Source: Thermodesulfobacteriota bacterium
GTDB lineage: Bacteria; Desulfobacterota; Desulfobulbia; Desulfobulbales; SURF-16
Length of the DNA stretch: 64,000 bases
Assembly (NCBI GenBank): GCA_039714595.1
Contig: JBDLJA010000001.1
Coordinates: 20,459 to 84,458 of the forward strand
Reading direction: 5' to 3'
The first letter of the stretch is position 1; every line of letters begins with the position of its first letter. The notes under the pieces were generated by a model. It was not told the origin of the DNA. It made no database searches and worked only from the letters and a program-made list of their open reading frames with translations. This document shows, piece by piece, positions 30,482-33,178 of the stretch. A program made the position numbers and the translations under genes.

Positions 30482-30811
30482 ATGTTAGAAGTTACATCTC
30501 TCGCAATCGAGAACCTTAAAAGCTATCTGGAGCAGAATAATATCAATTCTGCCATCCGCATCGCTCTGATGCAGGGCGGCTGAGCTGGCCCCTCCCTGGG
30601 CTTGGCTCTGGATGAGTCAAAAGATAATGATGAGATAGCAGAACACGATGACCTTACCTTTCTGGTTGAGAAAAGTCTCATGACCAGCTGTGGTGACATA
30701 AAGGTCGATTTCATGGATGCCGGGCCGCGCTCAGGCTTTGCCATCTCGTCCACAAATCCGTTAGGCGGTGGTGCATCTGGCTGTGGCAGCTGTGGCAGCT
30801 CCTGCGGCTAA
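30482..30811 (+). CDS. HesB/IscA-like selenoprotein (in-frame UGA at 30581-30583 read as Sec)
   Basis: AGGAGG (30469-30474) sits 7 nt before ATG 30482. 33 codons (MLEVTSLAIENLKSYLEQNNINSAIRIALMQGG) run into TGA, and the same frame continues as AGPSLGLALDE...IKVDFMDAGPRSGFAISS...GCGSCGSSCG. GG-U-AG aligns with the conserved GGC(A/S)G Cys of HesB/IscA. A stable hairpin begins at the UGA. Confidence 0.8.
30582..30608 (+). promoter_or_regulatory. SECIS-like stem-loop for the HesB-like gene
   Basis: GAGCUGGCCC-CUCCCU-GGGCU(U)GGCUC: a 10-bp stem with one bulged U, starting at the GA of the UGA codon. Confidence 0.55.
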
Positions 30812-30830
30812 CCCCCCTTAACTCGCGATA

Positions 30831-30875
30831 AAAAAATCCCGTTTCAGCCTGGCCTGAAACGGGATTTTTTATTTT
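30831..30875. terminator. Bidirectional rho-independent terminator shared by the convergent genes on either side
   Basis: Perfect 13-bp stem AATCCCGTTTCAG (30835-30847) / CTGAAACGGGATT (30854-30866), with an A-run upstream and a T-run downstream. Confidence 0.85.
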
Positions 30876-31086
30876 AAGATCCGCAGCTGGCCATAACCTC
30901 TTCCTGCCACTGCTCAATCTGCTCCTCATAGAACCTGGCGTCACTTTCCATCCCGCACTCCAGGCAGGACACGCGGGCGAAAGCTCAACGCCCCTTAAGG
31001 ACAGCCCTGCCCCGGCAATAGATACAACGCAAGACCAACTCCAACTCCGCCCAACCCGCCGCCTCTCTGGTGCAATCCTGTGCCAT
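30874..31086 (-). CDS. Candidate small Zn-ribbon (CxxC...CxxC) protein with an in-frame UGA (possible novel selenoprotein)
   Basis: My translation from ATG comp(31084-31086), preceded by AAGGGGTGG: MAQDCTREAAGWAELELVLRCIYCRGRAVLKGR-UGA-AFARVSCLECGMESDARFYEEQIEQWQEEVMASCGS-TAA. The stop abuts the bidirectional terminator, and a 40-nt hairpin follows the UGA. Not in the ORF track. Confidence 0.35.
30944..30983 (-). promoter_or_regulatory. 40-nt stem-loop immediately 3' of the UGA in the Zn-ribbon ORF (SECIS-like)
   Basis: CUUUC-G-CCCGC-[GU(G)UCC-UGCCU-GGAGU]-GCGGG-AUG-GAAAG, starting 1 nt after the UGA. Confidence 0.4.
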
Positions 31087-31610
31087 TATTACCACCCCTT
31101 ATTTTAAACGAGACAACTTCCCCGGCCCTCCCTCACCCCTTGCCCATCTCTTTTGCTAACACAGACCGGAATTTCTGGCAGCAGAGAAGAGAGTAAATCA
31201 AGAAAAAGTTAGACAAAAGCCACCTTGTCTGGTGATTAAAATGAATAGCCATTCACAAAGACAAAATAGACTTGACAGCGACCTAATAGTATGATTTTCT
31301 GCTGCACGCAAGAGGTCCATAAGCGTTCATTAAATTGTTGAAATTGTAATTTTGCCAAAAGCTTACAAACTACACTTCAACAGAGTATTGGACCCCTTAA
31401 CTTTTGACTTATATGTAAAGCGGGCAACGAGACAGAGCGTAGCCTCCCCCCTAAACCAGGGGAGATATATCTGTCCAGTCCTTACATAACTTATTGCAGT
31501 TGTTAATTATTATTGCCATCGTGGCAGGCTGCCTTAATAAAGACCATGCACCAAAGGCAACACCAAGGTCTAACGGCTGGCTACCTGGCACCACTGAAGG
31601 GAGAGATATA

Positions 31611-32369
31611 ATGAAAGTTGATGATCTGGAAAAGCTCAAGAACGAAGGTGTAGAGAATCTTCCTTCTGAGGAACGGCGCCGCTTCCTGCAATTTGGCCTA
31701 ACCGTAACCGGCGTCTTCCTGGGCGGTTCCGTCCTGTCGCTGACCTCCGCAGGCAATGTTCAAGGCGCTGTGGGCGGCATGAAACCGGCCAGCAAGTTTC
31801 CTTACAACCCGCATTACACCATGGTTATCCGCCAGAACCACTGTGTGGATTGTGAGCTCTGCAAAGACGCCTGTGTCGCCACCAATCATGTTCCTTCCTA
31901 CGGCTACCGGACCACCATCCTGGAGCGGGAGCGGGCCATCGGCCCCGACGCTACCGAGCGCATCTTCATGCCAGTCCTCTGCAATCACTGTAACCGTCCT
32001 CCCTGTGTTCGGGTCTGCCCCACCACGGCGACCTTTAAGGACAAGAAGACCGGCATCGTTATGATGAACACCAAGCGCTGCATCGGTTGCAAAACCTGTA
32101 TGGCAGCCTGCCCTTACAATGCCCGTTATTTTGATGAAGACAAGCGGACCATCGACAAGTGTAACTTCTGCGTCGACACCAAATTAAAAGAGAGCGGCGG
32201 CAAGATCACCGCCTGTGCTGAGGCGTGCCCGGCCAATGTCCGTATCTTTGGCGACCTTGCCGATCCCAGCAGCGAGGCCTATAAACTGATCCATTCACCC
32301 GAGAAGGTGGTATGGGTACTGCGTCCGGAGACAGGCGCCCTGCCCAACGTCTTCTACATGAATGACTAA
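31611..32369 (+). CDS. Tat-exported 4x[4Fe-4S] ferredoxin-type subunit (NrfC/PsrB/DsrO/HybA family)
   Basis: Start at MKVDDLE (ATG 31611, GAAGGGAGAG SD). Twin-arginine signal SEERRRFLQFGL. Four Cys clusters (CVDCELCKDAC, CNHCNRPPC, CIGCKTCMAACP, CNFC...CAEACP). Confidence 0.85.
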   Translation: MKVDDLEKLKNEGVENLPSEERRRFLQFGLTVTGVFLGGSVLSLTSAGNVQGAVGGMKPASKFPYNPHYTMVIRQNHCVDCELCKDACVATNHVPSYGYRTTILERERAIGPDATERIFMPVLCNHCNRPPCVRVCPTTATFKDKKTGIVMMNTKRCIGCKTCMAACPYNARYFDEDKRTIDKCNFCVDTKLKESGGKITACAEACPANVRIFGDLADPSSEAYKLIHSPEKVVWVLRPETGALPNVFYMND

Positions 32370-32485
32370 GGATAGATTTCTACCTCGCCCGCAGTTAAGG
32401 GAAAGAAAAAATATTGTCTGGATATCTCCCCTGCCCTACCAGGGTCAGGGGAGATAACAGAACAGTAGGTTTGGAGAGAAAAACA

Positions 32486-33178
32486 ATGAAAGATAAGAAG
32501 ATGAAAAACATTCTGCTTGGCGCCCTTGGCACCATATTCTGCCTGGGTTGCGTCACCGCCAGCCTTGCTTCAGCTCCTAAGAAGGGTGGGGAGACGGTAA
32601 TCCATAGCCATGGCGACACCCAGATCATCGCCGAAAAGCCCACTCGCGAGATGTTCAGCCACGCCCTCCACTTTGGCCAACTGGATTTAAGCTGTGACTC
32701 CTGTCACCCCGACACCTTCCAAAAGAAGCGTGGCGCGGCTAAGGCCAAGGGCGACTACACCATGAAGGCGTTTGCCGAGGGTAAGTATTGCGGGACCTGC
32801 CACGATGGCGACACCGCCTTCAGCGCCAACTCCCAGTGCTCCAGCTGTCATATCGCCCCCGAAAAAGAGAACATGTACTTCAACAAACCGGCCAAGACGG
32901 TTGAGTTTGGCCACAAGGCCCATATTGACATGGGCCTGGAGTGCGAACAGTGTCACAACGAAAAGGGTTTTGAGATGCGTTCCGGCGCAGCCGAAGAGCA
33001 TCCTGAATCCTTCACCATGCAGGCCCTCTATGACGGCAAATATTGCGGCTCCTGCCACAATGGCGATGACGCCTTTGCCTCCAACACCCGCTGTACCGTC
33101 TGTCACATCGGGGTTAAGGGCTTTGACCGCCTGAACGGTGGCGACTCTGGCGCTGCCGGCCACGGTGGTGGCCACTAA
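32486..33178 (+). CDS. Periplasmic hexahaem c-type cytochrome built from two c7-type trihaem modules
   Basis: Start at MKDKKMKNILL (ATG 32486, GGAGAG SD) with a signal peptide. Six CxxCH motifs: CDSCH, CGTCH, CSSCH, CEQCH, CGSCH, CTVCH. The pattern GKYCG(T/S)CH(D/N)GD.AF..N..C..CHI occurs twice. Confidence 0.85.
   Translation: MKDKKMKNILLGALGTIFCLGCVTASLASAPKKGGETVIHSHGDTQIIAEKPTREMFSHALHFGQLDLSCDSCHPDTFQKKRGAAKAKGDYTMKAFAEGKYCGTCHDGDTAFSANSQCSSCHIAPEKENMYFNKPAKTVEFGHKAHIDMGLECEQCHNEKGFEMRSGAAEEHPESFTMQALYDGKYCGSCHNGDDAFASNTRCTVCHIGVKGFDRLNGGDSGAAGHGGGH

Follow-up and report, generated by a model that had tools for sequence, protein, structure and literature searches.

Is a short reading frame that is broken by an in-frame TGA one gene or two, and, if one, what does it encode? 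The question is raised by a frame on the minus strand (31086 to 30874) of a stretch of 64,000 nucleotides from a Thermodesulfobacteriota bacterium (assembly GCA_039714595.1, contig JBDLJA010000001.1, positions 20,459 to 84,458), referred to here as the window and numbered from its first letter. The TGA lies between two CxxC motifs, and the frame converges on a gene for an IscA/HesB-family selenoprotein (the HesB-like gene). A preliminary description made from the sequence had proposed a selenocysteine (Sec)-containing protein of an undescribed family. The comparisons reported here indicate that the frame is very probably a genuine, free-standing gene for a predicted 70-residue selenoprotein of the NF041197 / OS_HP3 / DW family. 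The description had thus correctly caught a selenoprotein gene from raw sequence, and was wrong in calling its family new.

The reading frame is conserved on both sides of an invariant TGA

The frame translates as MAQDCTREAAGWAELELVLRCIYCRGRAVLKGR-U-AFARVSCLECGMESDARFYEEQIEQWQEEVMASCGS, where U denotes Sec, in exact agreement with the translation quoted in the preliminary description; its key residues are C21-x2-C24, G32-R33-U34 and C41-x2-C44. Using the adjacent pfk-like gene as an anchor, we fetched 80 related loci from metagenome-assembled genomes (MAGs) of Desulfurivibrionaceae/Desulfobulbaceae, and tblastn detected a syntenic relative of the small open reading frame (ORF) in the six closest. 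All six carry an in-frame stop at the same site, within the pattern C[IL][YF]C...GR*A.A.V[TS]C..CGMES...EQIE.WQ. An alignment-based scan of metagenome contigs yielded 23 more loci, all with GR*, so that the motif GR*[A/H] is common to the six MAG and the 23 metagenomic relatives. All 30 homologous loci have TGA as the internal stop, while at the end of the frame TAA, TAG and TGA all occur. Across 29 sequences, the C, G, R and U positions of the dual-CxxC and GxU core are invariant, apart from a single R-to-C replacement at position 33.

Selection was assessed by the Nei-Gojobori (NG86) ratio of non-synonymous to synonymous substitution rates (dN/dS) over the ungapped 47-codon core of the 29 distinct sequences. 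The ratio was 0.28 on the 5' side of the TGA and 0.24 on the 3' side, and of the five control frames, four gave values above 1.2; the fifth, reverse-complement frame +1 (0.35), shares its wobble positions with frame 0. Sequence entropy at codon positions 1, 2 and 3 was 0.67, 0.66 and 1.25, respectively. The retention of TGA in every locus, together with purifying selection across it, raises the observation above chance. A program-made ORF list gives the gene as two pieces of 36 and 32 amino acids, and the long hairpin that the preliminary description had drawn after the TGA is not significant by itself (see below), as might be expected of a nonsense-mutated pseudogene, of two unrelated mini-ORFs or of a conserved non-coding element of the HesB terminator region. 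However, the TGA stands at one column in 30 loci of differing context, some of them lacking a HesB-like neighbour, and the substitutions are of coding type in a single frame that runs through the stop. With the codon-position entropy, these results virtually exclude all three possibilities.

As a separate observation on the comparative set, the locus in contig JALPYG010000021.1, a single-cell assembly titled 'Dehalococcoidia bacterium', carries a pfk gene 77% identical to the Desulfobulbales-type gene found here, suggesting that this contig is contaminated or mis-assigned.

Cysteine homologues and database entries translated with tryptophan

A word-seeded search with the single sequence (U given as C) of an index of 5.8 billion proteins returned no match. 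A profile of seven sequences on the same index found two members, both mis-translated with Trp (W), and a profile run exhaustively against 1.84 billion representative proteins gave 35 hits. Those with W at the Sec column could not be reproduced by standard bacterial translation of their DNA, and the codon concerned is TGA; we therefore regard them as gene-caller artefacts. The DNA of the hits with C at this column, by contrast, translates exactly, which confirmed five Cys forms. Since these Cys-codon homologues are genuine at the DNA level, the family shows the classical Sec/Cys pair. Further TGA forms were found beyond the 30 loci, bringing the comparative set to about 35 Sec forms and at least five Cys forms, along with distant relatives of the Lar type. 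In public records the homologues are labelled solely 'hypothetical protein'.

The Trp entries bear on whether the UGA might be read through or reassigned without Sec, for instance through near-cognate decoding as Trp or Cys, or through programmed read-through. Several members are indeed translated with W at this codon by public gene callers, but these calls fail standard-code translation, and some genes of the same family end in an ordinary TGA stop. Moreover, homologues have Cys, the usual partner of Sec, at the aligned position, a hairpin of the Sec insertion sequence (SECIS) type follows the codon, and a selenoprotein of a validated family is encoded next door. Decoding without Sec is consequently very improbable. 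Taken together, the conserved TGA, the coding-type evolution on both sides of it, the Cys-codon homologues, the SECIS-type hairpin and the Sec-decoding lineage uphold the proposal of a selenoprotein gene.

Two further observations concern the database entries themselves. Translation of TGA as Trp was seen in public metagenome calls from JGI, ENA and Logan (proteins P0001-P0006, P0009, P0015, P0019 and P0021; loci L104, L105 and L112-L114), presumably because the gene caller applied an alternative genetic code. In an 80-residue protein close to the products of loci L085 and L094 (P0012), a five-residue gap deletes Sec (…ALRGR-VACRDCG…); this could be a natural deletion or an artefact of gene calling or assembly.

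The protein belongs to a described family

NCBIfam holds an equivalog model, NF041197.2 (CxxC_Se_CxxC, 'dual CXXC motif small (seleno)protein'), with a cut-off of 40 bits. All 29 distinct members match it, the alignments covering model positions 1 to about 47 out of 53, and two Cys forms, P0007 and P0011, exceed the cut-off with 45 bits. The record lists OS_HP3 (WP_425411677.1), and a 2026 review of prokaryotic selenoproteomes places both OS_HP3 and 'Hypothetical protein DW', the latter with a GxU motif, under NF041197; the family is tabulated in reviews of 2022 and 2026. OS_HP3 was reported in 2007 from the delta-symbionts of Olavius algarvensis, with two Sec forms, no Cys homologue and a predicted SECIS (Zhang & Gladyshev, PMC1976440). 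Two DW proteins are printed in Table S2 of the deep-Sep study (mSystems 2025, PMC12013277), one from Desulfosarcina sp. BuS5 (MDELKCIFCGKVAEIRGRUSNARVVCRSCGMETTLNDYRDQIEAWIDQVWKMLA) and one from D. widdelii PP31 (...CIFCGGRAKLRGRUANAKVACRDCGMETGPDEYRQQIEDWKETVC...), and the same supplement prints 'OS_HP3 2' of D. ovata.

The window protein is 57% identical to D. widdelii DW over 46 ungapped residues (pairwise E = 2e-19) and 48% identical to BuS5 DW over 46 ungapped residues, with U aligned on U in both cases. DW and 'OS_HP3 2' have the architecture CxxC-x8-GR-U-x6-CxxCG-x8-Y-x2-QIExW-x3/4-C in common with it. The window clade differs from DW in having Ala-Phe after Sec, a longer, unconserved N-terminus and a C-terminal Cys moved by three residues; it also occurs in Desulfurivibrionaceae/Desulfobulbaceae rather than Desulfosarcina, and its gene is convergent to the HesB-like gene. 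The likeness to OS_HP3 in the strict sense is more general: it too is small and has Sec flanked by two CxxC knuckles, a SECIS is predicted for it, and hhalign aligns its Sec column with that of the family (probability 86%), but identity is 26%, the Sec motif is KRT-U instead of GR-U, the QIExWQ helix motif is lacking and the C-terminus is different.

The impression of an undescribed family is understandable, as the single-sequence search was empty, no Pfam model scores above threshold and the database records say 'hypothetical protein'. Nevertheless, a curated model that matches all members, published proteins of the same architecture with 48-57% identity and Sec on Sec, and the earlier tabulation of the family make it extremely improbable that this selenoprotein stands outside every described family, and we do not follow the preliminary description in this respect.

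A short hairpin conserved in the family follows the TGA

RNAalifold on the relatives gave a 6-bp stem (NCUGCA/UGCGGN) closed by a 5-nt loop of the form N-G-[G/U]-N-N, whose first and last bases often pair. The apical loop begins 22 nt past the UGA, and stem and loop are present in 29 of 29 sequences, with 97.1% of cells in the stem paired; all slid registers drop to 27-63%. At the closing pair, CG was found 12 times, UA 11 times, AU and UG once each, and a mismatch four times, and the covariation score was reached by none of 500 shuffles; the distant member L114 has G-C at this pair. The pair couples position 2 of codon +6, a non-synonymous site, with the wobble base of Gly +11. Support independent of covariation comes from frozen synonymous sites: position 3 of codon +6 is C throughout, though the residue varies among A, F, L, S, T, V and Y, position 3 of codon +8 is G throughout, and UGC is used for Cys +7 and Cys +10 in 28 of 29 sequences, as opposed to 18 and 21 of 29 for the first CxxC.

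In the window, the apex stem is formed by the codons of Ser40 (UCC), Cys41 (UGC) and Leu42 with those of Cys44 (UGC) and Gly45 (GGG). The model of the bacterial SECIS (bSECIS), as summarised for Fig. 2 of PMC13188914 in its legend, has a loop of 3-9 nt with the pattern N1-G-[G|U]-N-N2 and a G at loop position 1 or 2. According to the same source, N1 and N2 often pair, the upper stem has 4-16 bp, the UGA-to-loop spacing is 16-37 nt and the minimum free energy (MFE) is at most -7.5 kcal/mol. The family hairpin agrees with the rules for loop, stem and spacing in all 29 sequences. Its 17-nt apex alone (-6.5 kcal/mol in the window, family mean -5.8) is weaker than the -7.5 kcal/mol given for a whole element, whereas the window hairpin with its lower stem attains -9.0 kcal/mol. 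Its loop in the window, UGGAG, is of the same type as the UGGAU loop of the HesB-like SECIS in the same genome.

As a control, we examined the hairpin in the Cys forms, and the result was only partly clean. It is lost in three of five (-0.4, +2.5 and +10.6 kcal/mol, against the Sec-form mean of -5.8), and the other two are taken up below. The legend of Fig. 4 in PMC1794560 describes earlier cases of Cys revertants with a remnant SECIS structure.

The preliminary description had instead drawn a 40-nt hairpin just after the UGA, with arms CUUUC/GAAAG, CCCGCG/UGCGGG and UCC/GGA and a UGCCU loop. This structure has a folding energy of -22.3 kcal/mol, which is not above chance alone (z = -1.09; 26 of 200 shuffles were as stable). 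It and the family apex are mutually exclusive and have only the 3' arm GCGGG in common; the CUUUC/GAAAG and CCCGC arms are unique to the window, and the 5' arms are unconserved in every relative, including the closest (L001). As a conserved SECIS, the long hairpin is thereby ruled out. What stands of the earlier claim is that a conserved SECIS-type hairpin follows the UGA; the conserved element is shorter and retains nothing but the 3' arm of the one proposed, and the covariation analysis that had been suggested supports this shorter hairpin and not the longer arms.

A further observation on the distant TGA form L112 (166-366; GT-U-ANAKVRC) is that it is without the family hairpin; an alternative, GGUAAG-GUGU-CUUACC, places a loop about 17 nt past the UGA.

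Predicted fold and relationship to Lar

An AlphaFold2 (AF2) model of a relative (P0001), built from a shallow alignment, reached a mean predicted local distance difference test (pLDDT) score of 70.7, with 80-90 in the core. It comprises strand β20-22, knuckle 1, strand β29-33, a turn with the Sec position (residue 36), strand β40-43 ending in knuckle 2, strand β49-51 and a helix at 52-72. On this model, the fold would be a Lar-like zinc ribbon with a C-terminal helix and with Sec in a β-hairpin turn. Profile searches of PDB sequences and Foldseek returned only generic zinc ribbons (Elf1, ribosomal and RNA-polymerase ribbons; E >= 0.03).

The link to Lar was seen from both sides. Pfam PF14354 (Lar_restr_allev) gave sub-threshold matches in 26 of 29 members (best E = 7.2e-5); the window protein scored 16.1 bits (E = 0.014), below the gathering threshold of 28.6. 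In reverse, the family profile found four true Lar proteins among the 1.84 billion sequences at E values of 5e-6 to 1.5e-4, and these score 56-88 bits on PF14354. The Lar pattern CPFCGG...C..CG...AIeaWN (PF14354 / TIGR03655) parallels the family pattern C[IL]FCGG...C..CG...QIE.WQ, but Lar proteins have neither Sec nor Cys at the hairpin-turn position. From these sequence comparisons, Lar is a putative distant relative at the level of the fold, and the window protein is not a member of it.

A mechanism can be outlined. SelB carrying Sec-tRNA(Sec) would bind the family hairpin, and Sec would be inserted at the UGA. The four Cys would then bind a structural metal in a C4 zinc ribbon (CxxC...CxxCG) followed by the long QIExWQ helix, and Sec, according to the model, would occupy the far end of the β-hairpin, remote from the two metal knuckles. 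In this exposed position it is probably a redox-active residue or one that binds a chalcogen or a metal, possibly paired with the Cys of the C-terminal helix, which is present as WQ[DE]xxC in 26 of 29 members and displaced by three residues in the window protein. We infer a role in redox chemistry or chalcogen transfer.

The SECIS apex is co-encoded with the CxxCG motif. A speculation, which we hold to be unlikely, is that the apex simply is the coding sequence of the second zinc knuckle, with the Cys, Cys and Gly codons of xxC-UGC-ANG-NNN-UGC-GGN pairing among themselves into a UGCA-NG[G/U]NN-UGC hairpin, and that the family is a redox zinc ribbon related to Lar. If so, the CxxCG knuckle would provide a ready-made proto-SECIS about 20 nt past the hairpin-turn Cys, a single TGC-to-TGA change would create a selenoprotein, the Cys forms with an intact hairpin (L109 and L115) would be precursors or recent revertants, and Sec, exposed at the tip of the β-hairpin, would form a selenylsulfide with the helix Cys in a redox cycle. 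We know of no description of zinc-ribbon redox chemistry of this kind.

Observations weighing against the assignment, and the choice of hairpin

Several results count against the reading proposed here or against parts of it. With U scored as C, the window protein obtains 32.1 bits (E = 9.7e-8) on NF041197, which is under the curated cut-off. Among ten members scored singly, two pass (L001, the closest relative, at 41.4 and L097 at 40.6), L085 follows at 39.9 and the others lie at 24-37; because of these scores, the NCBI pipeline would not name the window protein or most of its clade. No tRNA-Sec, nor any other tRNA or sel gene, was found within the 64-kb window. The covariation is confined to one stem pair and mostly reflects one split, between the clades with U-Ala and U-His, so that it represents few independent events. 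Two of the five Cys forms, L109 and L115, retain the full hairpin at about -6.8 kcal/mol; they are the nearest of the five to the Sec forms, and part of the hairpin could therefore be a by-product of the CxxCG codons. The placement of Sec in the fold depends on a shallow-alignment model of a relative that bears W at this site.

The remaining points concern the window hairpin itself. Codon 42 is CUG here, as against ANG in the family, which leaves a C.U mismatch as the innermost pair atop the family stem; the upstream CCCGCG is a better partner for the shared 3' arm GCGGG, and in an isolated fold the apex of the longer hairpin (-14.6 kcal/mol, base-pair probability about 1.0) outcompetes the family apex. 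The longer hairpin might accordingly have replaced the family apex as the working SECIS of this gene following the A-to-C substitution in codon 42. This hairpin is the MFE structure and makes up essentially the whole ensemble in isolation, it agrees with the minimal bSECIS rules of PMC13188914 (a G at loop position 1 or 2, loop 18 nt past the UGA), and no other member combines the C.U mismatch with the upstream CCCGCG. On the other hand, its specific arms are unconserved even in L001, and its loop has G-C where G-[G/U] is usual, whereas the HesB-like UGGAU resembles the family loop.

The position of the arms matters as well. The ribosome covers mRNA to about 11-12 nt downstream of the A site. 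As the 5' arms of the longer hairpin start 2-8 nt past the UGA, they would presumably lie inside the ribosome when the codon is decoded. Such a replacement is, in our judgement, somewhat unlikely, and we favour the family apex because it is conserved, has a loop like that of the HesB-like SECIS and avoids 5' arms so close to the UGA.

Regarding the two Cys forms with an intact hairpin, L109 (447-662) uses UGU and L115 (180-344) UGC at the Sec column, and they could be recent Sec-to-Cys switches or precursors; L115 comes from a 587-bp contig with 2x coverage, and a sequencing error is possible there.

The predicted gene adds a currently unannotatable selenoprotein to a Desulfurivibrionaceae/Desulfobulbaceae genome. 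Most members of its family escape annotation, being under the NCBIfam cut-off and, in metagenome protein sets, either ending early at the UGA or carrying an erroneous Trp in its place; since gene callers translate TGA in this way, selenoproteins are hidden as 'W' proteins in large collections. The comparative set also provides a hypothesis for the fold, a well-defined SECIS that overlaps the zinc-knuckle codons, candidate functional residues (Sec and the helix Cys) and, as a by-product, the distant link to Lar. At 60-70 residues, the family is a tractable target for biochemistry.

Features of the locus and its surroundings

The features are collected in Table 1. The ORF, the TGA between the CxxC knuckles, the Shine-Dalgarno-like sequence, the TAA and the shared terminator reported in the preliminary description were all recovered.

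Table 1. Features of the small selenoprotein gene and its convergent neighbour (window coordinates)
Feature	Position	Strand	Basis or remark
Coding sequence, small selenoprotein, 70 codons + TAA	30874..31086	minus	Read from sequence; shared frame in 30 homologous loci
Start codon ATG	31086-31084	complement	
Shine-Dalgarno-like AAGGGGTGG	31092..31100	minus	5 nt 5' of ATG; read from sequence
Sec codon UGA, codon 34	30985..30987	minus	Between CIYC and CLEC
Stop codon TAA	30876-30874	complement	
Family-conserved SECIS apex, CCUGCC-UGGAG-UGCGGG	30952..30968	minus	Comparative pairing and covariation
40-nt hairpin of the preliminary description	30944..30983	minus	MFE structure, window-specific
Bidirectional intrinsic terminator, common to the small gene and the convergent HesB-like gene	30826..30872	both	Folding
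IscA/HesB-family selenoprotein gene, convergent neighbour	30482-30811	plus	NF038090
UGA of the HesB-like gene	30581-30583	plus	
SECIS hairpin of the HesB-like gene	30602-30620	plus	

The neighbour scores 141.5 bits on NF038090 (IscA_HesB_Se; cut-off 85). Among 81 related copies its Sec site is TGA in 78 and TGC in three, and its SECIS has a conserved 7-bp stem with a 5-nt loop that begins 25 nt past the UGA; of 72 distinct TGA forms, 71 have UGGAU as the loop and one has UGGAC. In the three Cys forms, the stem is gone and the loop letters are retained. Since the adjoining gene is thus a selenoprotein gene of a curated family with a conserved UGA and SECIS, the lineage decodes Sec. A conserved operon or functional tie between the two genes was considered and ruled out, as the neighbourhood is common only to eight loci of the U-Ala clade. 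Other loci have a sigma-54 regulator, two-component genes, ABC transporters or S-adenosylmethionine-cycle genes nearby, and with neighbourhoods varying in this way between clades, genomic context gives no functional clue.

The terminator between the two genes is a 17-bp hairpin that lies 3 nt past the TAA, with A/U runs on both strands (-24.4 kcal/mol, z = -5.54, none of 200 shuffles as stable). It is the strongest terminator-like hairpin of the region, and was revealed by folding, having been missed by a consensus scan for promoters and terminators. An Rfam scan of the whole window at gathering thresholds gave no match.

On the 5' side, the small gene is preceded by an AT-rich spacer of about 400 bp (31087-31493). 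For the small gene, it yielded no convincing sigma-70 promoter, the consensus scan giving no usable minus-strand promoter. The spacer holds a terminator-like minus-strand hairpin at 31220-31235 (TCACCAGACAAGGTGG followed by CTTTTGTCT), and the divergent 4Fe-4S / multihaem cytochrome genes (31494-33178, plus strand) must also have their promoter here.

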